A stretch of DNA of 64,000 nucleotides from an uncultured Hyphomicrobiales bacterium (GTDB lineage Bacteria > Bacteroidota > Ignavibacteria > Kapaibacteriales > UBA7675). The translations under genes were made by a program, and so were the position numbers. Shown here piece by piece: positions 13,886 to 40,297 of this stretch; within the stretch, counting starts at the first letter, position 1; each line of letters starts with the position of its first letter. The notes beneath the pieces are model-generated. The model searched no databases. It was given only the letters and a program-made list of their open reading frames with translations, and was not told the origin of the DNA. The stretch lies in NCBI GenBank assembly GCA_964445695.1, contig CAYULF010000023.1:20732-84731 (forward strand). Direction: 5' to 3'.

Positions 13886-13922
13886 CAAATTCCCAAGGCC
13901 AATTCCAATCCAGGATACACTC

Positions 13923-15539: not shown

Positions 15540-15565
15540 ACGCGTTGTAGTAAAATGTTAAATCC

Positions 15566-15602
15566 AAGCCGGAGGAATGTAGTTCTTCCGGCTTTGTTGT
15601 TT
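15566..15602 (+). terminator. Intrinsic terminator after DUF1501 gene
   Basis: AAGCCGGAGGA..TCTTCCGGCTT followed by TGTTGTTT. Confidence 0.65.
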
Positions 15603-15655
15603 AAGAACGCAGGCTTTGGTTTCTACCTGGCTTTATTTACGATGATTTCTCACTT

Positions 15656-16170
15656 GATTACAGCGCCCTGCGGGCTTGCTTTCCGACGCTCTTGTTGGCC
15701 GGCGAGCGAGCAGTCACCGCATTTCAGGTCTGTCGGCAAGGCGGAAGTTGTACGCCACGGTCTTTTCATCTGCGGACAAAGTTCATCCGGGGGAGAAGTA
15801 TTCGGGGAATGCCGTTTCGGATCAGGACGGCACTCCCGCTTACCGGTTGATTCGGCGCGTTTAAGCACGTTTTGTTCTACGCTTGGTTTTTTACACGAGG
15901 ATAATTTGCGGCTTCGACGTAGACTGGCATATGTCACGGAGCGCCGCATGCAACGCGCCGTGGCAAGTCTGATTAGCGCTTGCCTCAAAAAATCTGCACT
16001 GATAGCAGGGTGGGAGGAGTGCGTCTGAACTTTATGGAAACTCGCGGTGGCGGCGGGGCGGGCGATGGGGCAGGCGGGCCCCTTGATCACCAAAAGCTGC
16101 GCCCAAAATGTCCAACCCGCCCGTTTAACACCCAAAACCAGCCGATCAACCTGTTAAACGGCCCGATCTA
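15656..16170. repeat. Dispersed non-coding element, copy 1
   Basis: Left hairpin, left box array, core TTCGACGTAGAC(15913)..GATCAC(16085), right 21-bp array; homologous to copies at 19.5, 31.1 and 33.2 kb. Confidence 0.9.
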
Positions 16171-16297
16171 AAGCATGTCCGCAACTTTTGGTCTTGACCT
16201 CCTGCCCAAAATCTGCCGCTTTCTCCAACCGTCGTCAATTTCACATCGAACGGCTCTCAATTCGGCTCAGGCGTTCACTCTCTACAATGCAATGGCC

Positions 16298-16792
16298 TCA
16301 CGCTTCAATCTGCGCGCGCAGGTCGCGCTCGTACGCTTTGATCAGTTCTTCCAGACCTTCCGGGCTTTGATTCGCTTGTAGCACGATCTCAACCTTGCCT
16401 GTTGTTGCCGAAGTCTCACCTGGTTCGTCGCCGGAGTTTTTCTGTCCGGTCGAGTTACCGTCTTCAGAAAAATCAACGTGCAGCTCCTCGTCGATCATTT
16501 GCAGCTTGAGTTTAGCCTGGAGCTTGACCTGTTCCACGCGAGGCATGTTCAATGGAACAAGCGTCAAAAGCGGCACGGCGATGTCAATCATTTCAACGCC
16601 GTTCTCCGTGCGTCGCGGATACTGAACAACTACAACTCGCGGTTTACGTGTTGAGCTTGTGTCCGTGAGATCATTGCCTTCTTCATCGGTGAAGAACTGA
16701 TTGAGATGCTGAAGCTGAGAGTCCTTGAGTGCGTCATTAGCCGCAAGTACCGCGTCGTGGACGCTGCGAATAAAACTCTTGAAACTGGTCAT
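16298..16792 (-). CDS. DUF2589-like protein
   Basis: F..FI.S.H.AV..AN, IAVPLLTLVP, C-terminal PEGLEELI..Y; paralogous to 17183-17827. Confidence 0.65.
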   Translation of the reverse strand: MTSFKSFIRSVHDAVLAANDALKDSQLQHLNQFFTDEEGNDLTDTSSTRKPRVVVVQYPRRTENGVEMIDIAVPLLTLVPLNMPRVEQVKLQAKLKLQMIDEELHVDFSEDGNSTGQKNSGDEPGETSATTGKVEIVLQANQSPEGLEELIKAYERDLRAQIEA

Positions 16793-16886
16793 TGTGTGTG
16801 GAATCCCCGCAAATAAGTGTTAAGCCGCCGGACCAATGCCCGCAGACCATGAGCGAAAGATGTGCTTCGAGAAAATGCTGCCGTAT

Positions 16887-17099
16887 TCAGCCTTTGTGCC
16901 CACCATCGGATAAAACCTTGTCCTTTAACTCTCTGAGTTTGTCGATCGCCTGTTGAGTCTGTTTAATGCCGTCGCTTGAGAGTCCAAGCCGCGTGCCGCA
17001 ACCGGGACACGTGAACTCTCCGCCCTGTACCAACAGTTCAACACTGAAGTGAATGGCGGTGCCGCAATCGGGGCAAGGGATGGATTGTGCCTGAGTCAT
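16887..17099 (-). CDS. Small zinc-ribbon protein
   Basis: CPDC..CPGC followed by an amphipathic helix; GGAG-like RBS upstream. Confidence 0.7.
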   Translation of the reverse strand: MTQAQSIPCPDCGTAIHFSVELLVQGGEFTCPGCGTRLGLSSDGIKQTQQAIDKLRELKDKVLSDGGHKG

Positions 17100-17182
17100 A
17101 TTTTTGCACTCCTCGCAAATGAAGCGTTTTAAGAGATTTAAGCCTGTTGTTTAATCTGCCGGGGAAACACCATGTGTTGTTA

Positions 17183-17827
17183 CTATTCGGCTGTCGGCGA
17201 AGAGGAAATTGAATCTGCTAACGTCCGTTGCAGGATGCCCAGCCCGGCGGGCAGCGGCAGCGTACCCGCCTGAATGTTAACCCGCAGATTGAAGTCGTCC
17301 GGCGCACCGGATTGCTGTTCGTTCTGTTTTTCGTCGGACGAGGCAGCGATACTCGCGCTCACTTTGCCGAACAGCCCGGTTACGGCCGTGCTTGCAGCTT
17401 TAATCGACGGCCCGGTTGAGTTTGTATCAGCGCGGCCACTTCCGTCGGAAACAGCGCTTCCGTTCGCGCTTTGTTCAGGATCAATGTTTAATTTGAAGTT
17501 GGCGTCAATCTTCTCCACTCCAAGCGCAGTCATCGGCAAGAGTGTAAGCAGCGGTACTTTGATACTCATCGGGGCATCGACCGTGGATGGTCTGTCGCTG
17601 CTACCTTCTTCGGGAACAAGGATTTGCCGCGTGAACACAAGGTCGATCATGACCGGTCTGTAAACATCCTGATCCTTGTAGAAAGCCGCGTCCAGAATGA
17701 GCGTGACTTGCTCACGCGCCATGCGGTTGTTTGCGCGAACTGCCGCCAATAGCGGCGCTGCCAGAATATTCTGCAGAGATTCCCCCTGCAGGGCCTCATG
17801 CGGTTGGGATGATGAGTCGTTTTCCAT
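17183..17827 (-). CDS. DUF2589-like protein
   Basis: LQNILAAPL.AA..AN, IKVPLLTLLP...LGVE....F, LPLPAGL motifs. Confidence 0.7.
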   Translation of the reverse strand: MENDSSSQPHEALQGESLQNILAAPLLAAVRANNRMAREQVTLILDAAFYKDQDVYRPVMIDLVFTRQILVPEEGSSDRPSTVDAPMSIKVPLLTLLPMTALGVEKIDANFKLNIDPEQSANGSAVSDGSGRADTNSTGPSIKAASTAVTGLFGKVSASIAASSDEKQNEQQSGAPDDFNLRVNIQAGTLPLPAGLGILQRTLADSISSSPTAE

Positions 17828-18167
17828 GATTCTTGCTCTTGGAGTTGCTGATTCAGTAGAACGGTGATTGTGCCGGAGGGAAACTACTCTGAGTTGCGGG
17901 GAACACGTGCTCCCGGAACGTTTCATGAGCTGAACGAACTCCGACGCCTTACAATCGGTCAGCTCACCCGAATATTGTCTGCGGCGTGGACATTGTTTTT
18001 GGCGCAGCCGGAGAGAGCCGGTTAAGTGGCTGTTTGGTATTGTATCCAGGTTGTTGGAGCCCCGGATGAATTCAATGGGAAAGTAGTTAAGTCGGAATTA
18101 AAATGACCGTGTTCTTGAATGCCTGCAACTTGGACTGTTTAACAGAAAGGCATGTGTCTCGGTGATT

Positions 18168-18210
18168 AACAAAAGCGGATTTAAAGGGCGCATGCGAAGC
18201 ACAGCCCGCA
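18168..18210 (-). terminator. Terminator-like hairpin downstream of lipoprotein 1 (shared with 31662-31705)
   Basis: Minus strand GGGCTGTGC..GCATGCGCCC-TTT; near-identical copy after the paralog. Confidence 0.55.
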
Positions 18211-18245
18211 CACGCCCTGAGTGCTCCGTCAAGTTTTTAACTGCG

Positions 18246-19268
18246 TCAGGGGCGCGCCAGCTGAATTGTAATCCTGGCGTCCGGATGAACCACAAGGCCG
18301 CCCGGAATGCTGTGTGACGTGACAGTATTGTTGGGCCCGGTGAAATGAACCGTTTTCCGTTCCTCCATTGTTTCGCAGTTTAAGGCTGCCAGGACTTCAT
18401 CGCCCTGCAACGTGGTCGAATTTCCAGCCATTGCCGGCAAGTCGATCGTCAAATGCTGCGAGAACTTGTGGATCCGGACACCCGAGTTGTTGCGAATCGA
18501 AAAGAAAAACGAGTGAAGAAATTCAACGCGAAAAGGCGCACCGCCATCCGCAGTAAAATGCACCCGCATTTCGTAAGTGCTGTCGGGGCCCGAGGTTCTG
18601 TCGTTCCAGTCGTCGCGTCGGTAGCTTAGTCTGTACGTCCGTGTTCCACCTTCCTCAACGATTTGGCTCGTGTATTCGGGATTGGATGGGTAGGCCGGCA
18701 AAGGTTTAAAGTTAACATTCAGCGGCATTAGAGTGCTGTCTGTACGCGAGGGCGCAAAGTCCTCCGGATCGAATGTAATGGTGTTCTCCATTAAACACTC
18801 GACCCCGCTGATGCTGACGGATACATCCCCAAGGCAATCAGAATTGCGCTGCAATTCCTTCTCAGAGCGGTACAGCTCAGAGCCGTCGCCGTCCAGAATG
18901 CGCACGAAACCGGACTCAATCGTCGCGGGCGAATGCAGGATAACCCGGTCGTCCAAAACATCAATTTTGTTAACATTGTTGTCAAACAGTACTTCGCCGA
19001 GGTAGTAGTTGTATTCGTCCGCGCCGAGGAAATGTTCGCCTTCAATTACGATCGGATCGCCCGGACAGAACGACTGCGGCGCAGTCGATTTAACCAGCAG
19101 GTCAGTCGTTTGTTCTTCTTTTGTGTCGTCGTGTTGTCCGGGCGGATTGTTGCTCGGTTCAATAATGCCGTCCTCATCGCTGCACGCGGTTAACAGGATC
19201 ACGTAAAAAATTGCCAGAATGTTAAACAGGTTCAGGACCTGATTGTCGCAGTTCGACCGTGCCATCAT
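18246..19268 (-). CDS. Lipoprotein with IPT/TIG-like domain (paralog 1)
   Basis: Lipobox LTAC-SDED; SFCPGDPIVIEGEHF; similar to 31723-33081; start codon uncertain (19268 or 19265). Confidence 0.7.
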   Translation of the reverse strand: MMARSNCDNQVLNLFNILAIFYVILLTACSDEDGIIEPSNNPPGQHDDTKEEQTTDLLVKSTAPQSFCPGDPIVIEGEHFLGADEYNYYLGEVLFDNNVNKIDVLDDRVILHSPATIESGFVRILDGDGSELYRSEKELQRNSDCLGDVSVSISGVECLMENTITFDPEDFAPSRTDSTLMPLNVNFKPLPAYPSNPEYTSQIVEEGGTRTYRLSYRRDDWNDRTSGPDSTYEMRVHFTADGGAPFRVEFLHSFFFSIRNNSGVRIHKFSQHLTIDLPAMAGNSTTLQGDEVLAALNCETMEERKTVHFTGPNNTVTSHSIPGGLVVHPDARITIQLARP

Positions 19269-19508
19269 ATCATCCTCCAGTGGGCTGCCGAGCATTTGCC
19301 GTGCAGCGTTCATTCAACAGATGCATACGCCCGTTGTGTTTATCGTGCGCAGGGAAATTGGCCATGGACGTCCTGCGCAGGGAACAGCCGGTGCAATTCG
19401 CAGAGTTTACGCCGCAGCCATGGGACTTGACAAGGCATTTTGCAGGTGCACCGTGGATTGCTTTCGCTTCCGTACAATGCAATATGGTGCGCGCGGGACG
19501 CATGTGCG

Positions 19509-19529
19509 CTACTGCATTAATACTGCATT
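19509..19529. promoter_or_regulatory. Tandem TACTGCATT direct repeat, 11-bp period, upstream of lipoprotein 1
   Basis: CTACTGCATTAATACTGCATT; same motif at 33158-33178. Confidence 0.55.
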
Positions 19530-20032
19530 GCAGCGCCCTTGCGGGCTTGCTTTATGACTTTTTTGTTTGGCTGTGGGTTTGAGGTTCGACGATCTGCGGC
19601 GTGGCTGAAGCGGCATGTCCAGCGCCGGTGTCAAGTCGGAGAGCAATAAACGGAGTTGACACATCCAGGCTGTAGGATCGAGATCGCGTCGGCAAGTCCG
19701 TTCATCGGCGTTACCGGCGCGTTTAACTACGTTGTGACCACCGCTTGGATTTTTTCGCAAGGATAATTTTTGGTTTCGACGTAGACTGGCACATGCCACG
19801 GAGCGCCGCATGCAACGCGCCGTGGCATGTTGGACTCACGTTTGCCTCAGAAAAATCTGCACTGGTTGCAGGGTGGGAGGAGTGCGTCTGAATTTAATGG
19901 AAACTCGCGGTGGCGGCGGGGCGGGCGATGGGGCAGGCGGGCCCCTTGATCACCCAAAGCTGCGTCCAAAATTTTCAACCTGCCCGTTTAACACCCAAAA
20001 CCGCCCATTCAGCCCAAATACCCGCCCTTTTG
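19528..20032. repeat. Dispersed non-coding element, copy 2
   Basis: Core TTCGACGTAGAC(19775)..GATCAC(19948) with the same flanking arrays. Confidence 0.9.
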
Positions 20033-20041
20033 TCCTCGTCC

Positions 20042-21610
20042 TCATGCTTCGTTAAGCAGTTCTTCACGCTGCCTGTTTTGCCAGACTTCCTGACGTTCCT
20101 CGCGCCAGACATCGATAAATCTGCGCCCCTCTATTTTGCTGGTCAGCCAGGCGTCGAACGCAAAGTACTCCAGTGCTCCCGATTCAAGAGGATCGCTACT
20201 TAAACAGCGCAGTGTCTTGCGCAAATCGATGAACAGCTCACGCAAAACTTCAGGATTGTAAACGAGCGGCAGTTGGCGAATGAAATGCAAGAGTGCCGAC
20301 TCGATCCGATACATCCGTTGGCGGCGATGCAAAAATCGAAAAGTCGAACGCAGATGGTGTTCCAGTACGTCGGTGTCACCCAATTCATAGTGTATCAGGA
20401 GGTTAATAATACGAGCATAAACAGCAACGTCACCGACTTGATCCAACTGAGGGTGATGTACCATTTTACCGGACCAGTCCAACGCTGTTCGATAATCTTC
20501 GAGAAAAATTGCTCCATACACTAGGCCGTATAACATGCCAATTGTTGACGAGAGTTCAAGGGTGTCGCCGTTTTCCTCGAGCCACCTGGCGGCGGAAGTT
20601 ATTGCCTGCGACAGCTCATGTGAATTCGCCCGATGAATTGCGCCCCACAAGGTCGTATAAGTCTCGATTTCGTCAATGGTAGTCCGTTTGTCGGGATAGC
20701 GGCTTTTAAACGACAACAATTGATTGCGATAACGTTCGAATTCCTGCCAACGCCCGGACTTGACACACTCCATCAGGTAGTGTCCGTACGAGAATATACT
20801 GCGGTGTTTGTTGTTGTCGGCAAATGTGGGGTGTTGCTCCAGCACTTCAACTTTGGCTCGCGAATGATAATAAGTCCTGGCGGCGTTGGAGCGCAGACGG
20901 TAATAGCGCAGATGCAGATCGTGCCATTCCAGTTGCGAATGAGGTGACTTGTTGTACTGCGAGCGCTGCAGGACTTGACTGTTCATCAGGGCATCCGCTT
21001 CCTGCGCAATGTTTGCATCACGAATGCGCCCGGCTTTCATTTCCAGCACGTACATCTTGCCGGCCAGGCGCTCCAGCTCGGCGCCTTCTCTTAAACGATC
21101 AATCGCGCCGAACAGCGCTTTGTAACTCTCGTCGACTGTTTCCGGCGTCAGAGTCGGCGTGCCGGTATGCATTTGAAGGTTTATTTCAATGGCTTCGATC
21201 TGAATCAAAGCCTCGAAACTTTCGGCTCGCCGCGCCAGCCCGCGCGCCTTATCCAGAATGGTGCGCGCCTGTGTATACAGACCGCGGGAAAAGAGCGTAA
21301 CGGCGTGGGCGATCATCGTCCGCAGTTTGCCGGCCGTTGTCTCGCTCCAATATTTTTTTGACATCTGGTCCAGAATCAGGTTGTACAGATAGCGCTTGGA
21401 CCCAGGCAAATCGTGGATGTCATTTTCGTGTGCACAACGCTGCAAAGCCTCCTCGTCATGATCGCTCTGTGCGGCGATTTCATCGAATAGAATACCGTAT
21501 TTACTTGGTCGGGCTCCTCCCGAAGCTGCCGCGGCACGTGAAATCGCCCGTTTTTCGGAGGGGGACAGCTTTGAAATCAATTCAAAAAGATCGCGCGAAT
21601 TTCTTCTCAT
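20042..21610 (-). CDS. Conserved hypothetical TPR-like helical protein, probable regulator
   Basis: DLFELISKLSPSEKR..Y..LFD..K.YLYNLIL N-terminus and RIINLLIHYELG..YF.F.AWL.SK C-terminus, recalled as a Bacteroidota family found beside secreted-protein genes; divergent from the S8 gene. Confidence 0.7.
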   Translation of the reverse strand: MRRNSRDLFELISKLSPSEKRAISRAAAASGGARPSKYGILFDEIAAQSDHDEEALQRCAHENDIHDLPGSKRYLYNLILDQMSKKYWSETTAGKLRTMIAHAVTLFSRGLYTQARTILDKARGLARRAESFEALIQIEAIEINLQMHTGTPTLTPETVDESYKALFGAIDRLREGAELERLAGKMYVLEMKAGRIRDANIAQEADALMNSQVLQRSQYNKSPHSQLEWHDLHLRYYRLRSNAARTYYHSRAKVEVLEQHPTFADNNKHRSIFSYGHYLMECVKSGRWQEFERYRNQLLSFKSRYPDKRTTIDEIETYTTLWGAIHRANSHELSQAITSAARWLEENGDTLELSSTIGMLYGLVYGAIFLEDYRTALDWSGKMVHHPQLDQVGDVAVYARIINLLIHYELGDTDVLEHHLRSTFRFLHRRQRMYRIESALLHFIRQLPLVYNPEVLRELFIDLRKTLRCLSSDPLESGALEYFAFDAWLTSKIEGRRFIDVWREERQEVWQNRQREELLNEA

Positions 21611-21910
21611 CGTTTCAAGTCACGTCGTAACGAAAACTTCGAATTTGGCGGAAAATAGCCTAATATCCCAGTATCAAGCCAGTATTCAATTTCCATTCGA
21701 GCAAAATATTGGTTTCACATTACTTCTGCGGGTTGACAATATTGGGTCAGCAAACGGCCGCGTTAACGTACCGGATATCACTTTACTCAAGCTCATGACT
21801 GTCCCGGGTCTAAACTGCCTGGACTAAGGACAGTACTACGGCGCCTGCATTCCATCCTTACAGATCACGCCCGTCCATTCCCGGATGCGACCGGCGCAAG
21901 GGAGGGGTAT

Positions 21911-21987
21911 GTTCCAATGTTCCAATCAGTCAATTGGAGAACACTGACGTTTGGTTGGAGAACACATTAACAAACACTGATTGGAAC
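21911..21987. promoter_or_regulatory. Nested inverted and direct repeat cluster upstream of the S8 protease
   Basis: GTTCCAATCAGT (21919) / ACTGATTGGAAC (21976) inverted pair enclosing TTGGAGAACAC at 21934 and 21955. Confidence 0.55.
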
Positions 21988-22042
21988 TTAACTCGGACTA
22001 TTCGGCGCCATTAATCACGTACAATCCACAGGACAATTTCGT

Positions 22043-25000
22043 ATGAAGTTTTCACGAATTCTATTGGTGATCGCATGGCTGATGCTGGCGGGTGCGACAG
22101 GTCCAGCTCTGTTTTCTCAACAACAGCAACAACGACAACCGGAAATCATACCTGGGATTCAACGCCCGATAGACACGGCCCAGGTCGGGTTGTGGATACG
22201 GTCGAACACCGATATGGACGCCCTGCGGCAATTTGCCGAGGAATCCGATGCCAATTTCCAATCATGGCACCCGGATGCCGTGGCACAGGCGGAAGCCAAC
22301 AATATTCCCCTGGTCATCCGTGGCGAAAACGGTAAAAGCGGCACATTCTACGGATTTTCAGCCTCGGGGCTGCCGCGTTATCGCGGTACCCACAATACCA
22401 ATGCAGCAACAACCACCTCTACGGATGCGGTTCAGGTTGGCGGCATTTCTGGTTACGACCTGATTGCGCCGGGACTCCTGGCGGGCGTCTGGGACGACGG
22501 CGCCGTGTACTGGAATCATCCGCAATTCGGCTGGTACAACGGGCGCAATCGCGTGATACAACGCGATTCGCCGGCGGGCACAATGGATCACGCTACCCAT
22601 GTTGCCGGAACAATTGGCCAGGTTGGTTTGCAGGGCCAGCGCGGAATGGCCACGGTGTGTTATATCGACGCCTATGACTGGATCAACGACATCAGTGAAA
22701 TGGCCTCGGCTTTCTTTAATCCGATGCTGGTAGCCAACCATTCCTGGGACAACATGGGCGGTTGGGATTTTAACTTTCTTAACGACGGCCGCTGGGTCTG
22801 GTTCGGCGACTGGACTATCAGCACGACGACGGATTTTAACTTCGGTTTCTACGACTCTTATAGCCAGCAATTGGATCAGACCGCTCGCCTGGCGCCGTTT
22901 TCACTCATCGTGCGTTCGGCCGGCAATGATCGCGACGACACCGGCCCCACGCCCGGAACGCAGCACTGGATTGTTTCCGGCGGAGGTTTTATTCTTTCTA
23001 CGGCTACGCGCAACGCTGACGGAGCGCCCAACGGATATGACTGCCTGATGAACGGCGCGGTGGCAAAAAATGTCCTGACTGTCGGTGCCGTGCTCGACAT
23101 GCCGCTTAAACCATCCTGCAGCGATCCGACGGATCCGAGCTGTGTGATTGCGCCTTCGTCGATTGTCATTACACAATTCAGTTCGTGGGGACCAACCGAC
23201 GACGGCCGTATTAAACCCGACATCGTCGGCAACGGGCAGGAAGTCTACTCGGCAATCTACTTTCAACCGGGCACAAGCAACCCCTGTTTTGAATGTTACG
23301 GCAATTACAACGGCACCTCGCAGGCGGCTCCGAATGTTTCCGGCTCGCTGCTCTTGCTGCAGGAAATGTATCAGAACCAGAATGGCGGCCAGACCATGCG
23401 CGCACAGACGCTCAAGGCGCTGGCGATTCATTCCGCCGATGACGCCGGCACGGCTGCGGGTCCGGACTACCAATACGGCTATGGCCTGATGAATACTCAT
23501 CGCGCCGCCCGTATTATCGCCGACGATGGGCAGCGTCACAACATCGTTGAATCGAGCTTGAACAATGGGACTGTTAACACCTTCCAGGTGCAGGTGGACG
23601 GCACGCGACCGTTAAAAGCGACGATTGCCTGGGCCGACCCAGCCGGCACACCCGTCTCGAACCAGTTGAATCCGACCACGCTGATGCTTGTTAACGACCT
23701 GGACCTGCGTTTAACAAACAACGGGACGGGAGTTGTTTATCAACCCTGGATACTGAATCCAGCTTCGCCCGCCGCTGCCGCGACGACAGGCGATAACAAT
23801 CGGGACAACGTCGAGCAGGTGCTCGTAGCCAATCCGCCTGCCGGAACATACACTGTCAGCGTAAGCCACAAGGGCGGCTTGCAGGGCTCGACGCAGGCTT
23901 ATTCGCTGATCGTGAGCGGCATCTCCAACTACGCCAACCTGCCGTATTCAACGGGTTTTGAAAGCGGCATAGATCAATATTGGCAAACGCAGAGTTCATC
24001 CGCTTTTGGCCGCATTGTGGCCGAGGCCGCCAATGGACCGCGCAGCGGCCTGCAACACTTAACAATGTCTTCCACGCTGAACGGGCAGGCCGTGCAGAAC
24101 GATGCGGACCTGTGTCTGAATCTCAATGGTCAGACTGATGTAGATCTCACGTTTTGGTGGAAGTCTCTGGGTGATGAAGTGCATGCGGCGGATGGTGTCT
24201 GGTTCTCAAACAACGGCGGTGCCACGTTTACACAAGTGTTCACGCTCTCGGGCAATCCCGGTATCTGGCAGCCGATAACACTTGACGTCGATCAATTGGC
24301 ATCACAGTTTGCCATGGCTCTGACGAACACCTTTGTCATTCGCTTTAGTCAATTCGACGACGAAGTGATCGGCATGGATGGATTTGCCTTCGACGACATT
24401 TCCGTTACTGCCGGTAAGAGTTATGCACCGGTGCCATACAGCACGGGCTTTGAAACCGGCGTGCTCGATGCGTTTTGGCGTACCTATTGTGTTAACTCCC
24501 ATGGTATTGCACAGGTCGAACCAATAAACGGCCCCAGCAGTGGAGCGTTTCACTTGACGATGCAGAACAACCCGAGTGGAACGCCAAGTGTATGTGCAGC
24601 GCAACTGTATCTTAACCTCGCGGGGCTGACCGATGTTGATCTGACTTTTGACTGGAAGTCGATTAACAATATTCCATTTCCGACCGACGCCGTTTATCTT
24701 TCAGCCGACGGCGGAAATACATTTGTTAACGTTTATTCGCTTTCGGGCAATAATGGCGCTTGGCAAACGATTACCCTCGATCTGGACCAGCTTGCAACGA
24801 CTTACGCCGTACCGTTTTCGCCTTTGTACGTTGTCCGGTTTGAACAAAGCACGACAATGCCGCTCCCGGTCTCCGGCGCTGCTTTTGACAACATATCGGT
24901 TACCACGGGTAAGTCCTACGCCTCCATCCCGTACAACACCGGATTTGAGACCGGGCTGGATCAGTATTGGCGTATCTATTCGACCGACGGCTATGCCAGG

Positions 25001-26224: not shown

Positions 26225-26251
26225 ACTCTGTTCAAACCTCGGTTTACCATC

Positions 26252-26290
26252 CAACAGCAGCCTGTTTGCCAGACGGGCTGCTGTTGTGTT
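26252..26290 (+). terminator. Intrinsic terminator after S8 gene
   Basis: CAACAGCAGCCTGT..ACGGGCTGCTGTTG followed by TGTTT. Confidence 0.7.
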
Positions 26291-26496
26291 TCAGAGAAGA
26301 ATTAGTTGCTCGTTAAACCGGATGCACTGTTTAACAAAACGGTGTACAATCAAAGCTGCCCGCCGAACATTAAATCCACATTTTCGAGTGTGGTCGTCTG
26401 CATCAAACATCGCCGCAGGCCTGATTATCGATTTGAGTCGGTTCCATCAAAACATCGAAGCGAATACTCTTTTCCGCCTGTGTTCATCTAAAGCAG

Positions 26497-26526
26497 AAAA
26501 AAGGCTGCCTCAAATTGAGGCAGCCT
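26497..26526 (-). terminator. Intrinsic terminator after 26582-28651
   Basis: AGGCTGCCTCAA-a-TTGAGGCAGCCT preceded by an A-run on the + strand. Confidence 0.8.
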
Positions 26527-26581
26527 CGTTTGTCCATCTGTTTTACAGTTATCGTTGCTTTGTCAGTTGTGGTCTAAGCAG

Positions 26582-28651
26582 TTATTGCTTCACCAGCGTG
26601 AGAATGAGATGATCAAGCAATTCGCCACGACGTACCGCCACTGAATAGACTCCGGGAGCCAATCCGCTGAGGTCAAAAGTCTGGTTGGAATCGACATTTC
26701 CGTAAGTACGGACCGTATGTCCGGTCAGATCGGTAATTGCGATTTCATCAAACGATTGAGTTGTCCGGCCAATTGTTTCGAGCACAAATTGATTGTTGGT
26801 CGGATTTGGGATTATCTTAAGGCTTGCGGCCTGTTCCCGGGTACCGGCGGCAACATTGGAACGTTGCAGAGAGTTCGAATTTGTGAAAACTGCTCCCTCA
26901 AAGACATCGATGTACGGTTGTTCCTGCCAGTTCATCGGGGGAGGAGGGACCATGCCTTCATCACAGATTACCCGGATGCGAACTTCACAGCACGATGCGG
27001 GATCCGTGGGTCTGACGGTATAGACAAATCCGGAAGGCAGTACAATTCCAAACCCGCTCAACAAATTGAAGGTCTGACCCGTTGGCACCAGATTCATGTC
27101 TGTCTGAACAATCTGGAATTCTGTGTATGCTCCATTGCACCAGACAGGATTGTTGTTTTGCAGCAATGTATTCAGCGAGTTGAAATCGATCGACCAGTCG
27201 CAGTCGGGCTGAGTGAGGATTATGTCCATTTCCACGTATTCGCGAACGACGTTAACGTGCACCGTAATGATGCACTTTTTGCAGTTCAGCGGGTCTTCGT
27301 GAATTCGGCGGTAAGTGGCAGACTGAGTGATATTGCTTAACAACGTATTTGCCACAACTTCATCCGGACCTGTAACAACTTTTTTCCACTGTCCCCAGGG
27401 GAATTCCGGATCAACATTGCATGCTGGACATGATTCATACTGTGTTAAGTCAAGACTCGAACCACAATCCACCGTTACCGTTTGTTCACACTCAGTTTCC
27501 AATGCCTGCTGGATGACCACAGTAATTCCGAGTGTGCGTATCAGACAGCCATCTTCGTCAAAGAACTTGAAAACGTGGTAACCCGGTCCCAGTACAACCT
27601 GGCATCCCGAATCGCGCGAGTCATGCTGCGTCAGGATCGGGTTGCCGCTTCCATCGTCAATTTCGATATCCGCCAGGAAAAAATCGAAGTCAAAGTAGAC
27701 CAGGCAGGGGTCGTAGAGCAAGGTTGATGGATCGCCATTGTTGAAGTCGCAAATAGTTTGAAGTTCTTCAATCCATTCCGGTTCCGGTATGTCGATGTCA
27801 ACACAGCTCTCGCCGCAGCAAATATCAGTTCCACATGGGTAAGTTGTGCCGAAGTACTTTGCGCAAATCGTATGATGACCGGGAGTAAGAGTAAGCTGAA
27901 TGGTCTCGAGATCGGTTGAATCCTCAATGATCTCTCCGTCCAACGTCCAAATAATGGAGTTTTTGTTTACCTGGTTGTCACGCAGAGTAAAACTGAAGTT
28001 TTCACAATCGTGCCGAAGAATATCAATGCTGTCGAGACAACAGTCCGTGTCCGGCGTTTGATTGAGTTGGCCGATGAAGTAATGCGGTGTCCAAAGGCCG
28101 GTTCTCTCCACGGCTTCAACAGAAATCATGTTTTGACCGCAAACAAGCAGACGTTTTGGAATCTCAAGATTCAGGAAACCATTGTGGGTGTCCAGGGTGT
28201 CCAGTTTTACTCCGTTGAGCCATACTTTGTGCTCGTTGTCCGCAGCCGTAAGCAGACGATATGCAATGCAGTCATCGCCGTCATCTACCGAAAAAATCAA
28301 GCGATAAAACGTTGTCTGCTGATTGGGAATACCCCAAACGTAGTGTGTGATTGGGGTGAAAGGGGCAACCCATATGTTGTCGTTGACATTAAACACGTTG
28401 TTTAAGCCCGGGTTATTCCCTGTCGCCTGACCTTGGTTGGGCGTTCCGACATTCGGCACGCCCCAGCCCGCCGTTGTCGTTAAATCACTGCGCCAGTCGT
28501 TTGGATCCAGAGAGTTGCCGGTAATATTCGGTGTATTGCCGGGGCCAATCCACGCTTCCCAGGGACCTCCATTAATATCAGTGGTTTGAGCCTGGAGAGA
28601 GTAGGACACTATGCCTGCCAGGAAAACAAGCAAGGTAATGTTCTTGATCAT
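26582..28651 (-). CDS. Cys-rich secreted protein with jelly-roll/lectin-like N-terminal domain and T9SS C-terminal domain
   Basis: Signal peptide; FYRLIF..AADNEHKVWLNG..GQNMISVEA; many Cys pairs; IIPNPT..ITDLTG..DLSGLAPGVY. Confidence 0.8.
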   Translation of the reverse strand: MIKNITLLVFLAGIVSYSLQAQTTDINGGPWEAWIGPGNTPNITGNSLDPNDWRSDLTTTAGWGVPNVGTPNQGQATGNNPGLNNVFNVNDNIWVAPFTPITHYVWGIPNQQTTFYRLIFSVDDGDDCIAYRLLTAADNEHKVWLNGVKLDTLDTHNGFLNLEIPKRLLVCGQNMISVEAVERTGLWTPHYFIGQLNQTPDTDCCLDSIDILRHDCENFSFTLRDNQVNKNSIIWTLDGEIIEDSTDLETIQLTLTPGHHTICAKYFGTTYPCGTDICCGESCVDIDIPEPEWIEELQTICDFNNGDPSTLLYDPCLVYFDFDFFLADIEIDDGSGNPILTQHDSRDSGCQVVLGPGYHVFKFFDEDGCLIRTLGITVVIQQALETECEQTVTVDCGSSLDLTQYESCPACNVDPEFPWGQWKKVVTGPDEVVANTLLSNITQSATYRRIHEDPLNCKKCIITVHVNVVREYVEMDIILTQPDCDWSIDFNSLNTLLQNNNPVWCNGAYTEFQIVQTDMNLVPTGQTFNLLSGFGIVLPSGFVYTVRPTDPASCCEVRIRVICDEGMVPPPPMNWQEQPYIDVFEGAVFTNSNSLQRSNVAAGTREQAASLKIIPNPTNNQFVLETIGRTTQSFDEIAITDLTGHTVRTYGNVDSNQTFDLSGLAPGVYSVAVRRGELLDHLILTLVKQ

Positions 28652-28940
28652 TGTAATGAACCTCTTGGTAAGTATTGATCGTTTGCGTCTGCAAAAGGGA
28701 AGGAAATTTGATCCTTGTCTATTTGAGATGCCAAATAGACGGTGTTGGAAAGTGTGACTACACAGTGATCCCTCTGATTGCCGCAGTAATTGGTTGACCT
28801 CTCAGGCAATCAGTTCGGTCTTGTTGTTAATTTCTGCGCAGCCATCTTACAGTGTTAACTGCAAGAGTTTTGGACTTGCATGCGGCCGACATGGTACGTG
28901 AATAAAAATACCGCTTCGGCAACGCAGGGGCAAGCATTAT

Positions 28941-28961
28941 AAGTGAGTATAAAGTGAGTAG
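28941..28961. promoter_or_regulatory. Tandem AAGTGAGTA direct repeat, 11-bp period
   Basis: AAGTGAGTATAAAGTGAGTAG between the LuxR gene and the T9SS cargo gene. Confidence 0.5.
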
Positions 28962-29134
28962 GAGTAAACACGATCAATCGCTGGCCGCAGGTTCAACGCC
29001 ATTCAACAGTCGCAAGTTCACATGGATTTCAGTTTTGATTCTTACCACGCGGAGTGAAGTACGGAGCCATTGTTCCTCCTCTGTAACGGTCGCGTGAATC
29101 CAAACGTGCATTCGGAGCAACGTTCTGCAACCGG

Positions 29135-30778
29135 TCAAAGAGAGGCAAAATAGGTCGCCAGGTTGGTCCCCGGTGTCAGGAGGAGTTTCTTGCGAATGTG
29201 CCTGCGGTGTGTGTTGATTGTTGTGACGGAATTAACCAGAAGTTCGGCGACTTCCTTCGATTGCAGTCCACTGGCAATCAGCAGGCAGATCCGGATTTCA
29301 GTTGCCGTGAGATCGGATGCTATGTTCAACAATTTATGTTTAAGACCTGCGAGGAATGCGTAGCTTTCTTCCGTCAGGTTGTCAGTATCCACCTTGCCGT
29401 TTCTGCGGCCGTTTTGGCCGTTTTGATTGACGGAGCCGTTGGCGACGCTGCCCGACGAGCTGACTTTGTTCAGAATCTGGAGTATCGTTGGGTCCCCCAT
29501 TTGCACCGGCAGTTTAGCGCTGTCCTGCTTGTTCTGCTGCATGGAGGACAAAGCTGTTATTCGTTGTTGCAGCTCTGGAATGCCGGGAGTGTGCCATACC
29601 TGCGATGCGATTTTATGATACTGCAGCGCGCGGTCGTAATTCCCGCATTGTTCTTCGAGCTCGCACAGGCGCTGACATGCTGCGGCCTGTTTACAGCGCA
29701 ATCCCGCGGCTACGGCAACATCCATCATATGTGAAAAATATTCCCGTGCAGCAGCGCTGTTTCCATTCTGTTGTTGGATTACTCCGAGTTGCTCCAGGCA
29801 TTCTGCCTTGACATTGTTGCGGAAGAGGTCGTCTCTGGAAGAATCAAGGAGATGGTCGAGCATGTGTTTTGCCGTGTCCTGCTCATTGAGTTCAATATGG
29901 ATGCGCGCCTTTAACATAGTGTTAAGTCCCGCAAGGTCCTGCAGATCGCAGGCGTTCGCCAGTGCAATTGACTTGTTAACGCATTGCAGCGCTTTCCCCA
30001 TTTGTCCGATCTCATAGTGCAAATTCCCGATCGCATTGAGCGTAATTGCCAGCGGAATCTGCAAGTTTCCCTTCCGGGCCAGGGTCATGCTCTTCTGAAA
30101 ACTTTGCATGGCTTCTCTGGTGCGATGCAAACTCTGATATACGAGGCCGAGACTGTGGTACAACTTGCAATCCCTGTCATTTAGCGGATGCCGGTCCGCG
30201 CAGCGTTTCTGCCGCAGACTGTACATTAAACAGATGTCATAGTTGCCCTGTTGATAATGTATCAGGGAAAGTATATGGAGCGCTTGATATATCACCTTGT
30301 CATCCAGGTCGTTTTCGTGGGCAAGACTTATTGCTTGTTCAGCATATGCAATTGCCTCGTCAACCCGTCCGTGCATATCCGAGTTCACCGCTATATGCCC
30401 CAGGTACCAACAGCGGTCTTCGACCCGGTCAAGTTGACTGTAGAGTGCGCGACAACATTCGACGTAGTATTCCATCCGGGGAATATCGTTAAGGTAGTGG
30501 CAGGCAATCGAACACATGAACAGAACGCGTATTCGCTGGATCGCATCCAGGGTGATTATGTGAGCCTCGGCCTGTTTCAGCAATGATTCACCGTCGCGAA
30601 CAACGCGCTTGGGATCCGTATACAGGTGTTTGCCCAACGTCTTGACTGTCACAGTGTTTTCCACGCTTTGCAACTGTATGTATCCGGCTTCTTTCGTTGG
30701 TGTTTGCATCTGGATTTGTTGAATGATGGCTCTGCACTCTGCAGAAAGTGTGCTAAAAAAATCAGGTGATGCTGACAT
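29135..30778 (-). CDS. TPR-repeat protein with C-terminal LuxR-type HTH
   Basis: TPR-like helices; LTATEIRICLLIASGLQSKEVAELL..S..TINTHRRHIRKKL. Confidence 0.88.
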   Translation of the reverse strand: MSASPDFFSTLSAECRAIIQQIQMQTPTKEAGYIQLQSVENTVTVKTLGKHLYTDPKRVVRDGESLLKQAEAHIITLDAIQRIRVLFMCSIACHYLNDIPRMEYYVECCRALYSQLDRVEDRCWYLGHIAVNSDMHGRVDEAIAYAEQAISLAHENDLDDKVIYQALHILSLIHYQQGNYDICLMYSLRQKRCADRHPLNDRDCKLYHSLGLVYQSLHRTREAMQSFQKSMTLARKGNLQIPLAITLNAIGNLHYEIGQMGKALQCVNKSIALANACDLQDLAGLNTMLKARIHIELNEQDTAKHMLDHLLDSSRDDLFRNNVKAECLEQLGVIQQQNGNSAAAREYFSHMMDVAVAAGLRCKQAAACQRLCELEEQCGNYDRALQYHKIASQVWHTPGIPELQQRITALSSMQQNKQDSAKLPVQMGDPTILQILNKVSSSGSVANGSVNQNGQNGRRNGKVDTDNLTEESYAFLAGLKHKLLNIASDLTATEIRICLLIASGLQSKEVAELLVNSVTTINTHRRHIRKKLLLTPGTNLATYFASL

Positions 30779-31106
30779 GTCACATCACCGGAAGCTCTGA
30801 CTTTCAGCAGCTAGACTTTGTGGATCTTTATTGCACCGACTCAGGCGTCTCCACCGCTGCGTATGGTTCAGACTTCGCGGTAAAATATAGGTAGTTGCTG
30901 CCAAATAGACCATGACTTCTCAGTGTGATGTTTCTTCAGCGTGCTTGCAGACTGCGGCGTGAAGCGAGCGCAACGCTGAATTCGCTGTATGCGCGGATGC
31001 CCTTGATATCACTGATGGAGCAACGCTGAACTGAATGCGCTCGGCACCGGGAATCCTCCGGCGCCACATTTTCAGATTGATGCACTCCCAACCCGACTTA
31101 ACCATT

Positions 31107-31535
31107 CGCATGATTGCAGCGCCTGTTCCAGGCTTGCTTTATGATAATTGTGTTTGTCGGCGGGAGTTCAGTTGGAAAGGCGGAAGCCGGTGTTGCGTCC
31201 GTTCACCGTTGAATAGAGCACGTTCAACTACAATCTGGCTGTCGTTCAGTTTTTTGTGCCTGGAAAGTTTGCGGTTTCGACGTAGACTGGCACATGTCAC
31301 GGAGCGCCGCATGCAACGCGCCGCGGCATATCGGACTGACGTTTGCCTCGAAAAAAATCTGCACTGGTTGCAGGGTGGGAGGAGTGCGTCTGGACGTGGT
31401 GGAAACTCGCGGTGGCGGCGGGGCGGGCGATGGGGCAGGCGGGCCCCTTGATCACCCAAAACTGCATCCCAACCTTTCGGCATGCCCGTTCAACATCCAA
31501 AACCGCCCGCTAACTCGACGAACCAGCCCGTTCAC
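31107..31535. repeat. Dispersed non-coding element, copy 3
   Basis: Core 31276..31455; 31107-31460 nearly identical to 33196-33549. Confidence 0.92.
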
Positions 31536-31661
31536 GCGCCGACTCACAAAGCACCGAGCAGATCACCGCAAAATTGTTGCGCGTCCTCCAAACGCCTCGT
31601 TGAATCGTTGAACGCAATACAATGTCGCACTCGAAACCTGGTCGTGCGACACTGCGTGACA

Positions 31662-31705
31662 AACAAAAACGGATTAAAAAGGGCGCATGCGCAGCACAGC
31701 CCGCA
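31662..31705 (-). terminator. Terminator-like hairpin downstream of lipoprotein 2
   Basis: Homologous to 18168-18210; T-run follows on the minus strand. Confidence 0.55.
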
Positions 31706-31722
31706 ATCATCGTCGGGGAGCA

Positions 31723-33081
31723 TCATTGCGGCCGTTCCAATCGAAGTGTCAATTTTGAGCTGTCCGTTGCAATCACCCTCTCCTGCACTGTATTGACAAA
31801 TTTGTCGATGGTGTTGCCGCTCCAGGTTTCCTCTCGCCGGCTGTATCTGCTGTAGCGAATCCGGACAATATCCTCCAGCTGTGATCCGCGAAGTTCAAAA
31901 TGCGCATTGTAGAATCCGGTGACGGAGCTCAGGTCGATGGAAATGTCCAACTCGCTGCGGCTCTTTGATCTTGTGTGGTTACCGCAATATGGAGAATCAG
32001 AAATTTCCCGGTAGACAGCCAGCTTTGGTGTATCTGTCCCGGGATAAAACACAATTATAAGGCGGGATTCAAAACTGTATTCGGTTGAAGGAACAAATCG
32101 CGTTGTTAACCTGATCAGAGTATCTCCGTTTTGCACGACGCGTTTTTTGTCGAAGAGCCAGTAAACATCGCAATTTTCTCGTTGTTCCGGTTTGATGGTT
32201 CGGCTTAAGGGGATGAGACCTTCGGCAGTGCCAACAATCGTGGTATCGGCGGTCACCCCTGCAACAGCGCTGTAAAACGCGCTGTCGACCGCGCGCGCAA
32301 ACATTTCGACATCTGTCAAACTGAATTCCATATCCCCCCAGCAACGCTTGCTGCGTGTGTAAACACTGTCGGAAATAAACAGCTCTTCGCCGTCAGCTGA
32401 AGTAATGCGAAACCGACCTGATTTGAAATCAACAGGTACTTTGAATCCCCTTGCCGGGATCGAGTAGTCATCCTCCAGTCCAATGCTGTACTCGCCGAGA
32501 AAGTACCTCAGTATCCCGTAATTGGGGTATTTTCCATCCGCGGAAGTGATAAGGTCGCAGGGACAAATGTTAAACGGCCCATCAAGCAAAATCTGGCTTG
32601 CTCGTTTAAGATCGACCTCGCAGTCGTCCGGTATCTCGAGCTGCCACGAAGTGATTGCTTCGTTGCTTTTGCCAAAAAGCTGGATAGTGCCGTGTTTAAT
32701 CTGCCATGGCACGGTTGCCGTAAACTGCGTCTCCGAAATACGGTAGGCCTTCGTCGGGATGCCGCCGATTTTCAGTCCCAGTTCCGCTGAGAGCAGCGGG
32801 AATCCCGTTCCGTGCACTATTATTTGTTGCCGCGGGCAAATCGAGCTTGCATCGACGCTTTCGATTGTCATCGTGGGTTTAACTACGACGGTGTCTCGCT
32901 GCGCGCCTGTATCCACCGGCGTTGTGTCGAGGAGTGTTGTGTCGGCGCCGGTTGTATCCGCCGGAAGTGTGTCAATGTTAACTTTTTCTGCCGGGTTATG
33001 TTTAACCGGATTGTCGTCGTCGCTGCACGCTCCAACAATTACTACCACGCATATTGTCAAGAGGATAGTCAGGCTTTGCAT
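31723..33081 (-). CDS. Lipoprotein with IPT/TIG-like domains (paralog 2)
   Basis: Lipobox VGAC-SDDD; DT-rich linker; SICPRQQIIVHGTGF; C-terminal half aligns with 18246-19268. Confidence 0.75.
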   Translation of the reverse strand: MQSLTILLTICVVVIVGACSDDDNPVKHNPAEKVNIDTLPADTTGADTTLLDTTPVDTGAQRDTVVVKPTMTIESVDASSICPRQQIIVHGTGFPLLSAELGLKIGGIPTKAYRISETQFTATVPWQIKHGTIQLFGKSNEAITSWQLEIPDDCEVDLKRASQILLDGPFNICPCDLITSADGKYPNYGILRYFLGEYSIGLEDDYSIPARGFKVPVDFKSGRFRITSADGEELFISDSVYTRSKRCWGDMEFSLTDVEMFARAVDSAFYSAVAGVTADTTIVGTAEGLIPLSRTIKPEQRENCDVYWLFDKKRVVQNGDTLIRLTTRFVPSTEYSFESRLIIVFYPGTDTPKLAVYREISDSPYCGNHTRSKSRSELDISIDLSSVTGFYNAHFELRGSQLEDIVRIRYSRYSRREETWSGNTIDKFVNTVQERVIATDSSKLTLRLERPQ

Positions 33082-33157
33082 CGTGTACTCTCAGTTTTGG
33101 TCAGGTGATTCATGCTATTTGTACTATTACAATGTAGCGTCGCCCGGCGCAAACGCA

Positions 33158-33178
33158 CTACTGCATTTCTACTGCATT
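33158..33178. promoter_or_regulatory. Tandem TACTGCATT direct repeat upstream of lipoprotein 2
   Basis: CTACTGCATTTCTACTGCATT. Confidence 0.55.
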
Positions 33179-33195
33179 GTGGTTTTTGCGGCATG

Positions 33196-33623
33196 CGCAT
33201 GATTGCAGCGCCTGTTCCAGGCTCGCTTTATGATGATTGTGTTTGTCGGCGGGAGTTCAGTTGGAAAGGCGGAAGCCGGTGTTGCGTCCGTTCACCGTTG
33301 AATAGAGCACGTTCAACTACAATCTGGCTGTCGTTCAGTTTTTTGTGCCTGGAAAGTTTGCGGTTTCGACGTAGACTGGCACATGTCACGGAGCGCCGCA
33401 TGCAACGCGCCGCGGCATATCGGACTGACGTTTGCCTCGAAAAAAATCTGCACTGGTTGCAGGGTGGGAGGAGTGCGTCTGGACGTGGTGGAAACTCGCG
33501 GTGGCGGCGGGGCGGGCGATGGGGCAGGCGGGCCCCTAGATCACCCAAAGCTGCGCCCAAAAATTCTGAACACCCCGTTCATCGCATGAAACAGCTCGTT
33601 AACTCATCAAGTCATCCCGGTTC
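33196..33623. repeat. Dispersed non-coding element, copy 4
   Basis: Core 33365..33544; lies just downstream of the rnr stop. Confidence 0.92.
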
Positions 33624-33705
33624 TGCGGTGTCTGGCCGAGAGCACAAAACATCAGTCAGAAATTTTCCTGCAAGTTGTTTAATGCCGGCAAAACAACACC
33701 GCGCC

Positions 33706-36030: not shown

Positions 36031-36145
36031 AAGCAAATCCTTGTAATAGGCGGGAAGGTAAACGAGCGGAATGCAGGTGCACCCGCTTTTGTCGTGGTGT
36101 GGGGAGGCTGCCGGTCCGTCGCGCACCTGCTGTTTGTACTGCACA

Positions 36146-40242: not shown

Positions 40243-40297
40243 ATGTTGTACTTTCACGTTCGCTCTGTTTCGACTTAAGGTGCGGCTGTTGACCGCT

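Follow-up and report, generated by a model that had tools for sequence, protein, structure and literature searches.

Repeats between DUF1501 and rnr in an uncultured bacterium resemble a genus-restricted family of small RNA genes with LytTR-type promoter modules

The 64,000-nucleotide (nt) window of an uncultured bacterium that is analysed here as a whole stretch of DNA (G000:C23:20732-84731, where G000 is this genome of 5.6 Mb in 43 contigs) carries, between a DUF1501 gene and rnr, four copies of a modular repeat. In a preliminary description these repeats were taken either for a cassette platform or for a dispersed non-coding RNA (ncRNA) or non-autonomous element family of no described kind. 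Our analysis favours the view, which we hold to be rather likely, that the repeats belong to a multicopy small RNA (sRNA) gene family that is restricted to one genus and activated by a LytTR-type regulator, and that they are not cassette borders. The proposal of a dispersed family is supported by at least 56 copies throughout the genome, by a conserved structure with compensatory changes and by conservation at orthologous sites. We also agree that the family is undescribed, because Rfam gave no match and no like family was found in the literature searched. Specifically, there were no Rfam matches, with FopS/GibS, OMEGA/HEARO and ribozymes among the families covered, at the gathering score in the window, none at E≤10 in positions 15400-20300 and none at E≤1 in six loci with copies of subfamily B (see below). 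The literature on Bacteroides sRNAs, on paralogous or multicopy sRNAs of Bacteroidota and on LytTR direct repeats contained no family like the window repeats.

A repeat search of window positions 14000-35000 gave a 180-nt direct repeat family with copies at 15988-16167, 19851-20030, 31353-31532 and 33442-33621, which are 87, 100, 86 and 80% identical to the reference copy, respectively. This family is abutted by a second one of 173 nt with 70-100% identity, and copies 3 and 4 (33192-33491 in copy 4) share 300 nt at 99% identity. All four copies are oriented along the + strand, and no inverted pairs of 40 nt or more were detected in the span searched. In the four-way alignment, the motif positions define an order of CGTT-type boxes, a T-run, a TAGACTGG box, the conserved core and CCCGTT-type boxes, the last of which have degenerated in copies 1 and 4 but are readily recognised in copies 2 and 3. 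The left edge of each copy folds, according to ViennaRNA, into a short GC-rich hairpin followed by a T-rich stretch, and the 3' end of a minus-strand open reading frame (ORF) follows each copy, at 16298, 20042, 31723 and 33706. The preliminary description was therefore accurate with respect to the number, position and common orientation of the copies, their modular layout with left hairpin, box arrays and core, the minus-strand gene end at every copy and the lack of terminal inverted repeats. Its gene names also hold by Pfam, namely DUF1501, two DUF2589 genes, an S8 peptidase with a type IX secretion system (T9SS) tail, a second T9SS tail protein, a TPR+LuxR/GerE protein and RNase R.

The repeats proved to be numerous. 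The 16-nt invariant core motif occurs at 56 sites in this genome when up to 2 substitutions are allowed. Subfamily A comprises 20 of these 56 copies, including all four in the window, and is characterised by a long 5' hairpin, a 3' insertion and downstream boxes; the remaining 36 copies constitute subfamily B. An nhmmer search with a four-copy profile returned 20 matches above 130 bits on 13 contigs, together with a long tail of partial matches, and several matches sit at contig ends. A covariance model (R1) built from 44 subfamily B copies gave 71 matches at E≤0.01, of which 57 were at E≤4e-13, and at least 48 matches in G001, the one genome of the same genus that was searched. Across 61 genomes only this genome and its congener matched R1, with no matches in the 59 others, which were drawn from 2 further genera in the same family and 10 further families in the same order. 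The same restriction was seen with blastn over 41 genomes, where these two matched and the 39 others did not. Lastly, a two-block exact pattern found 39 stretches (44 matches) among 185,579 species representatives, all of them in one metagenome-assembled genome that corresponds to G001, and had no matches in JGI metagenome contigs.

The positions of the copies are largely conserved between the two congeners. 46 distinct copies of G001 were examined by mapping their 1.2-kb flanks to G000, and for 26 of these both flanks fell within 6 kb on one contig (of the other 20, only one flank could be mapped for 12 and neither for 4, and the flanks of the last 4 fell on different contigs). At 22 of the 26 mappable sites G000 has a copy in the same place, and 4 lack the core motif. 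The flanks are about 80-92% identical, and G000 and G001 are therefore well-separated species. Two of the four 'empty' sites were aligned, and both turned out to be replacements of 0.45-1.4 kb with no clean insertion. Over 21 orthologous pairs, the median identity was 0.84 in the core promoter (-110 to -66 from the motif), 0.89 and 0.91 in the two halves of the body and 1.00 in the motif, and 0.71, 0.66 and 0.68 in the DNA just outside the unit. In comparison, the median identity over all distinct copy pairs was only 61%. The nearest relative of a copy lies in the other genome for 22 of 50 G000 copies and 24 of 42 G001 copies, with 17 of the 42 G001 copies having it in their own genome. Together, the identities between paralogues and the cross-genome nearest relatives imply that the family is older than the split of the two species. 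Some copies, such as copies 3 and 4 of the window, were duplicated or converted later, after that split. The copies are thus stable, selected loci rather than recent insertions.

The body of each unit is G-rich, about 160-180 nt long and, to judge by its pairing pattern, probably an RNA read from the + strand. Six helices were defined by eye and checked on a 44-sequence alignment. In a model-fitted alignment of 98 matches (92 distinct rows), standard pairs filled 91.6% of the cells, versus 41-65% when partners were slid by 1-3 columns, and compensatory cells numbered 106, versus 20-36 with slid partners, values that none of 500 shuffles reached; both the structure and the fitted alignment derive from the scored sequences, so that these figures are inflated. 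Changes on both sides were observed in 13 of 26 pairs. The covariation is carried by the 5' hairpin (5 of 6 pairs) and a long-range stem (5 of 5 pairs), and the G-rich blocks are invariant and without covariation, as helix 6 and the unpaired blocks never vary. G·U or U·G occupied 216 cells and A·C or C·A 50, and single-sided departures from the commonest Watson-Crick pair comprised 209 wobble and 46 A·C or C·A cases. Such an excess is expected only if the + strand pairs as RNA, which argues for a + strand RNA. The + strand also folds better, with a mean energy of -64.6 versus -54.3 kcal/mol for the minus strand, and with alifold values of -92.8 versus -81.2 and -58.5 versus -49.7. Alifold on separate alignments of subfamilies A and B produced long-range pairings that we did not trust, and these were replaced by the hand-defined helices and the covariance model. 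A coding reading, in which a glycine-rich peptide would follow the GGAGG motif, was rejected: any given frame is open in 48 of 91 copies at most, and in 23 of 91 the invariant blocks are separated by a distance that is not divisible by 3. As a separate observation, many subfamily B bodies (e.g. L100, L102 and L107) start with a UGAUGA-like word and end with CUGAUC. These words resemble box C, box D or kink-turn words, possibly by chance.

Upstream of the body lies a module that has the appearance of a promoter. Anchored on the TA box, its consensus reads CCGTTcA at -84, CCGTTnAaCCACGtt at -63, CGTTCAgTTTTTT at -40, a weak GGA at about -20 and TAnnCTTG at 0. The three CCGTTyA boxes are directly oriented with a phasing of 21-22 nt; CGTT cores are located at -83, -62, (-52) and -40 from the TA box, and those at -83, -62 and -40 are present in 51-55 of 62 aligned copies. 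A TA box is found in 93 of 94 distinct copies, the commonest forms being TAGACTGG, TAAGCTTG, TATGCTTG and TAGACTTG. From the end of the T-run to this box the distance is exactly 27 nt in 62 of 91 copies and within 27-29 nt in 77 of 91, a spacing that is kept even though the intervening sequence varies. The -7 box of Bacteroidota is TAnnTTTG. This word was found within 120 nt upstream of 22 of 39 tRNA genes, versus 1.5% of random windows, and the housekeeping promoters of this genome, as far as such upstream sequences tell, are of the Bacteroidota type. The units have no conserved -33 element, and this, combined with the variant -7 box, is what is usually seen in promoters that depend on an activator. 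Scanned with a position weight matrix of the 98-nt module, this genome has 91 sites of at least 30 bits, and in a Markov-shuffled control of 1.9 Mb no position reached 18 bits. 48 of these sites precede the G-rich motif and 43 precede other sequences, which fall into clusters of 10, 4, 4, 4, 2, 2 and 2 members and 13 singletons. The fixed geometry and the re-use of the module before other bodies fit a promoter that belongs to the unit, at which transcription would start. Most of the 43 sites with other bodies have no nearby ORF in the same orientation, and several further RNA families may therefore be under the same control as the G-rich family. Pfam analysis of six ORFs behind such modules identified an AraC-type regulator, an ECF-sigma-like protein and a DUF2569 protein, with no match for the other three, and no conclusion was drawn from this. 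A pattern for the shared 3' module was too strict, as it matched only 5 of 48 known positives, and its count is void.

LytTR-type regulators recognise sites with the consensus [TA][AC][CA]GTTN[AG][TG], and P3 is the promoter that drives RNAIII in the agr system. The boxes of the units look like sites for a response regulator of this type. AlgR, which belongs to the LytTR family, has the published sites CCGTTCGTC, CCGTTTGTC, CCGTTCATC and CCGTTTGGC (PMC4064291), and the CCGTTyA core resembles CCGTTCGTC and CCGTTCATC. AgrA binds two direct repeats upstream of P2 and P3, promoters with a suboptimal core (PMC4227749). The organization expected of a LytTR-dependent promoter, i.e. direct repeats of about 9 bp, spacers of about 12 nt, 21-nt phasing and a weak core promoter, is found in the units. 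Of the 10 LytTR genes in this genome, one encoding a Response_reg plus LytTR protein (G000:C4:277775-278551) lies behind a gene for a 1067-amino acid kinase with Reg_prop, Y_Y_Y and His_kinase domains, and two tandem units, 477 nt apart, come directly after this pair on its strand (G000:C4:276800-281812; locus L141:3300-8313). Both units share the boxes and spacing of the main family and carry a TAAACTTC box; their body is a different one, and their 3' end resembles that of the main family. The whole arrangement is kept in G001 (contig C70) at 76-86% identity. We therefore regard this pair on contig C4 as the best candidate for the regulator.

Taken together, the proposed sRNA gene family would function as follows. 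Each copy would be a self-contained small non-coding RNA gene on the + strand, with an activator-dependent promoter made up of the three phased CCGTTyA boxes, the T-run and, 27 nt later, the TAnnCTTG box. The LytTR regulator of the C4 pair would be the best candidate to activate this promoter by way of the boxes, so that one signal could switch on the whole family together. The promoter would drive a structured G-rich RNA of about 160-180 nt, in which we predict a 5' hairpin with a GCAUGC loop and a long bent stem enclosing an A-run opposite GGGUGGGAG. Shine-Dalgarno (SD)-like GGAGG motifs, a GGCGGCGGGG tract and a GGGG-loop-CCCC hairpin are predicted as further parts of this RNA. The exposed, invariant G-rich tracts might then act in trans, either as a sink for an RNA-binding protein or for ribosomes, or through base pairing with C-rich targets. 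An SD-like 4-mer is located upstream of 23.6% of crude starts, versus 10% in controls, which does not decide on SD mimicry.

A more far-reaching proposal, about which we are doubtful, is that one LytTR two-component system controls about 100 promoters, almost all of them belonging to ncRNA genes, and that a burst of SD-like, G-rich RNAs reprogrammes the very large secreted and surface proteome. Several RNA families, of which the 56-71-member family of the window copies would be the largest, would then share the promoter and in part a G-rich 3' module, and the RNAs would titrate a global RNA-binding protein or 30S subunits, which is to be taken just as tentatively. If real, such a regulon would exceed by far every paralogous sRNA system yet described in bacteria.

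Several observations weigh against the view that the repeats are LytTR-activated sRNA genes. The transcription of the body, its strand and the start and end of the RNA are features that we infer from the sequence. In addition to the inflation of the pair statistics mentioned above, RNAalifold, applied to 98 copies in a plain MAFFT alignment, recovered only 11 pairs and detected no compensatory changes. Single-sequence z-scores of the + strand were -0.12 for copy 2 and +0.45 for a subfamily B copy, and the minus strand of copy 2 folds better than shuffled sequences (z = -2.85). No U-tract terminator is visible in the alignment after the 3' hairpin. With respect to the promoter, TAnnCTTG is one base off the housekeeping -7 box and was found upstream of none of the 39 tRNA genes, and its proposed role is deduced from the geometry of the module. 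Only 1 of the 10 LytTR genes adjoins units, for which the chance probability is roughly 0.1 (with about 70 units in 5.6 Mb), so that this adjacency is a lead and not a proof. Finally, the preference for gene ends, with 19 of 36 subfamily B copies located between convergent genes, the assembly breaks at copies and the 99% identity of copies 3 and 4 would also be expected of selfish repeats.

The latter points lead to the view that the units are a non-autonomous mobile or selfish repeat family, similar to miniature inverted-repeat transposable elements, REP/BIME or BOX, which spread through intergenic DNA, is tolerated mainly behind gene ends and whose promoter and hairpin features are incidental or serve the element itself. 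We consider this quite unlikely. It would account for the high copy number and intergenic location of the units, for contigs of both assemblies and of public runs that end in copies, for the tandem arrays in G001 (period about 338 nt), for the enrichment in a segment that differs between congeners and for the 4 of 26 mappable sites without a copy in the other genome. The gene context, as judged from crude gene calls (greedy longest ORFs), points to sites behind 3' ends. A divergent context was found for only 3 of 56 nhmmer matches; the gene upstream of a subfamily B copy is co-oriented with it in 30 of 36 cases and the downstream gene is convergent in 23 of 33, and for subfamily A the downstream gene is convergent in 14 of 20. 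This context is compatible with 'neutral parking places' and equally with RNA genes that keep away from other promoters. Transcription from the units would proceed towards the 3' end of the next gene, and cis-antisense effects are therefore possible. What speaks against selfish repeats is that terminal inverted repeats are absent, with no shared inverted termini in alignments of 18 and 30 copies, that the two presence/absence sites examined are replacements, and that 22 of 26 sites are common to species with flanks only 80-92% identical. Moreover, the body is better conserved than the flanks, and motifs, spacing and base pairs persist among paralogues that are only 61% identical. Tyrosine recombinases number only 5 in the genome, although no search aimed at transposases or RAYT was made. 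Modular intergenic repeats are represented by the pneumococcal BOX, the enterobacterial REP/BIME and ERIC and the Neisseria Correia elements. Such elements are smaller than the units or end in inverted repeats, RAYT or transposases mobilise many of them, and they have no fixed geometry of a phased-box promoter. The units are like them in being dispersed, modular and intergenic, in lying often behind gene ends and in breaking assemblies, and such elements can likewise carry promoters or be transcribed. Unlike them, the window family has positions largely conserved between species and no inverted ends, and the size and asymmetry of its units do not fit the palindromic 20-40-nt units of REP/BIME.

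A similarly low probability is given to the idea that the units act as DNA, with their binding-site arrays and a structured or G-rich tract serving as regulator sinks, as transcription barriers between convergent genes or as nucleoid or replication-related sites, or that a functional transcript arises from the minus strand. Box arrays on both sides of the core in subfamily A, the placement between convergent genes, the lack of a clear terminator and the invariant G-rich tracts without covariation would all be compatible with this, as would the z-score of the minus strand of copy 2 and, by our reading of the alignment, a minus-strand word resembling TAnnTTTG that some copies carry immediately to the right of the core. 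The compensatory changes in two helices, the excess of G·U over A·C (216:50) and the fixed 27-nt spacing to the -7-like box are arguments for a + strand RNA instead, and the occurrence of the module before many different bodies fits a promoter.

This leaves the preliminary proposal that the repeats are recombination sites of an integron-like platform for gaining, losing or shuffling surface and secreted-protein modules. The region between DUF1501 and rnr indeed differs between the congeners. Window positions 12000-15696 are 90% identical to G001 contig C77 and positions 33704-42000 are 92% identical to contig C73; between 15696 and 33704 only the repeats match G001 by blastn. The outer copies thus lie near the region's borders, as had been described. 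The GC content is 0.48-0.55 inside the interval versus 0.57-0.62 in the flanks. In G001, DUF1501 is followed by other DNA, including a 32%-identical homologue of ORF 31723-33081 and then a unit at the contig end, and two unrelated ORFs are located upstream of rnr. The unit density is also high, with 4 in 18 kb versus about 1 per 80-100 kb genome-wide. The description as an accessory region therefore stands insofar as the interval is variable and rich in copies. It does not stand insofar as the copies are not special to the region, the family being genome-wide, with further clusters of subfamily A on contigs C16, C11, C12 and C35.

A cassette platform would be in line with four same-orientation copies that bracket and subdivide an 18-kb segment without a blastn counterpart in G001, with the lower GC content inside, with a gene's 3' end at each copy, with the G001 homologue that is again followed by a unit and with the frequency of T9SS-tail proteins beside subfamily A copies. 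It is nonetheless highly improbable, since the copies are mostly single, dispersed and syntenic between species, no recombinase lies near them, they have no inverted ends and no clean junction was found. As had been noted before, there is no integrase in the region: the 5 PF00589 matches of the genome all lie on contigs other than C23, and Pfam detected no recombinase domains in the 10 ORFs between 13.9 and 36.2 kb. No attC-type imperfect palindrome was seen to bound the copies among inverted pairs of 40 nt or more, which is a coarse test in which no attC model was run. The conserved part is an asymmetric unit of about 350 nt. Like integron attC arrays, the repeats place a same-orientation element at each gene's 3' end in a variable segment; unlike integrons, they come without intI, attC-type palindrome or attI/Pc, and as units of about 350 nt that are mostly single, at more than 50 loci and in conserved positions. 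Contigs of two metagenome DNA runs from one study cover all five blocks at about 98% identity, which shows that a closely related strain with the same gene blocks exists, and every one of these contigs ends at a copy. They contain no trustworthy joint; the sole one, from 18184 to 33441, was disregarded because its shorter side has only 25 letters. T9SS-tail neighbours were dropped as evidence because at least 150 such genes occur in this genome. The 'bracketed accessory region' consequently gives no evidence for a new gene-cassette system. On the view that the repeats are sRNA genes, their clustering in this interval is a side effect or passenger feature, and they are conserved functional units that are dense in a variable segment by chance and that fragment assemblies. 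They may still take a passive part in homologous recombination between cores that are 80-100% identical and in this way add to the variability of the interval. As an aside, a degenerate unit, whose promoter module is at C1:299643, has one of the five tyrosine recombinase genes (G000:C1:298437-299835) about 0.8 kb away. G001 copy L078 has flanks that map near this gene and to contig C16, which hints at a rearrangement.

Among known RNA systems, the nearest likeness is to FopS/GibS, a paralogous sRNA family of Bacteroides thetaiotaomicron with 14 members and 12-15 copies (PMC11697453). In both cases multicopy small RNA genes, each with its own locus and promoter, occur in a narrow taxon of a Bacteroidota-type lineage, and the same source links FopS to surface protein control, which we count among the likenesses. 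FopS is described there as having a single-stranded 5' seed, a Rho-independent terminator and an Rfam entry. Unlike FopS, the window family, whose expression we infer, has 56-71 copies, a larger G-rich body, no U-tract terminator, a phased-box activator promoter and no Rfam match. Sibling sRNAs that depend on a regulator are exemplified by Qrr1-5 (LuxO/sigma-54), csRNA1-5 (CiaR) and LhrC1-7 (LisR) (PMC11697453). In these, as in AgrA/RNAIII and putatively in the units, RNA genes share one factor-dependent promoter with direct-repeat sites and a weak core promoter (PMC11697453, PMC4227749), and in agr a LytTR regulator gene adjoins its RNA target (PMC4227749), as the C4 gene adjoins its presumed targets here. 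LytTR binding is suggested here, unlike in agr, by the likeness to AlgR sites and one adjacency. The sibling families and RNAIII have 1-7 members, whereas here the module is located at 91 or more sites before several unrelated bodies. Known families of sibling sRNAs range from 2 to about 15 members, and 56-71 members among at least 91 like promoters would, if true, represent a new scale of RNA regulation. With a candidate kinase/regulator pair beside two presumed targets, the C4 locus offers a compact test case. The host in which this would take place is an uncultured, flagellated and T9SS-rich bacterium with promoters of the Bacteroidota type. Its flagellar FlhA (FHIPEP) gene is found at C18:19449-21587.

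The individual features of the four window copies, all on the + strand, are as follows. Copy 1 starts with a GC-rich hairpin and T-rich stretch at 15663-15700, which are terminator-like and lie outside the family-wide unit (ViennaRNA fold of 15650-15720 and alignment). Its putative promoter module at 15835-15927, assigned by motif positions and the family consensus, has CGTT-type boxes at 15835, 15856 and 15867, a T-run at 15887-15892 and the TA box TAGACTGG at 15920-15927. The RNA body of subfamily A, predicted together with its ends, spans 15934-16115 and includes the invariant G-rich motif at 16006-16021 (model match G000:C23:36664-36843), and degenerate CCCGTT-type boxes follow at 16120-16170 (alignment and motif positions). 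In copy 2, the left hairpin and T-rich stretch were placed by folding at 19533-19560, and the putative promoter module by consensus and motif positions at 19698-19789, with boxes at 19698, 19718, 19729 and 19741, a T-run at 19750-19755 and a TA box at 19782-19789. The predicted body at 19796-19978 contains a long 5' hairpin and the G-rich motif at 19869-19884 (model match G000:C23:40526-40706), and the downstream boxes at 19983-20032 have a spacing of 21 nt, as seen from alignment and motif positions.

The hairpin and T-rich stretch of copy 3 fold at 31115-31145. Its putative promoter module at 31199-31290 (motif positions) consists of boxes at 31199-31225, a T-run at 31250-31255 and a TA box at 31283-31290, and it faces the divergent TPR+LuxR/GerE gene at 29135-30778 (-). 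A predicted body at 31297-31480 with the G-rich motif at 31371-31386 (model match G000:C23:52027-52208) is followed at 31485-31535 by a triple box with elements at 31485, 31506 and 31527, again spaced by 21 nt according to the motif positions. For copy 4, the corresponding elements are a hairpin and T-rich stretch at 33204-33235 (fold), a putative promoter module at 33288-33379 with a TA box at 33372-33379 (repeat search and motif positions), a predicted body at 33386-33569 with the G-rich motif at 33460-33475 (model match G000:C23:54116-54297) and a downstream box region at 33573-33623, which ends 83 nt before the rnr stop codon (ORFs and motif positions). Outside these four copies, a fifth unit at 42853-43180 (+) combines the same promoter module (TA box 42943-42950; 43.5 bits with the position weight matrix) with a different body that belongs to the 10-member cluster. 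Its 3' segment is similar in being G-rich with GATCA, a downstream triple CCCGTT box is present at 43110-43180, and nhmmer matched it at C23:63815-63914. The downstream boxes of subfamily A may be a relic of the promoter of a following unit. At the G001 loci L048, L057 and L063, two or three subfamily B units are repeated in tandem every 336-339 nt.

With respect to neighbouring genes, Pfam analysis of 19 subfamily A neighbours identified several large T9SS-tail or adhesin-like proteins and two TPR+GerE regulators. TPR+GerE genes adjoin subfamily A units at window positions 29135-30778, G000:C16:8683-10797 and G000:C32:48528-50732, and two of them are divergent from the box array. As this association concerns 3 of 20 subfamily A copies, and as most of the 41 GerE-domain genes in this genome (about 34 of which encode 550-820 amino acids) are not near copies, it was kept only as a lead. 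Lastly, three copies at contig ends (G000:C8:1-240, C21:1-200 and C29:1-200) run, after a GATC word, into one and the same unrelated sequence of about 27 nt, which suggests that another repeat or an assembly artefact lies next to some copies.

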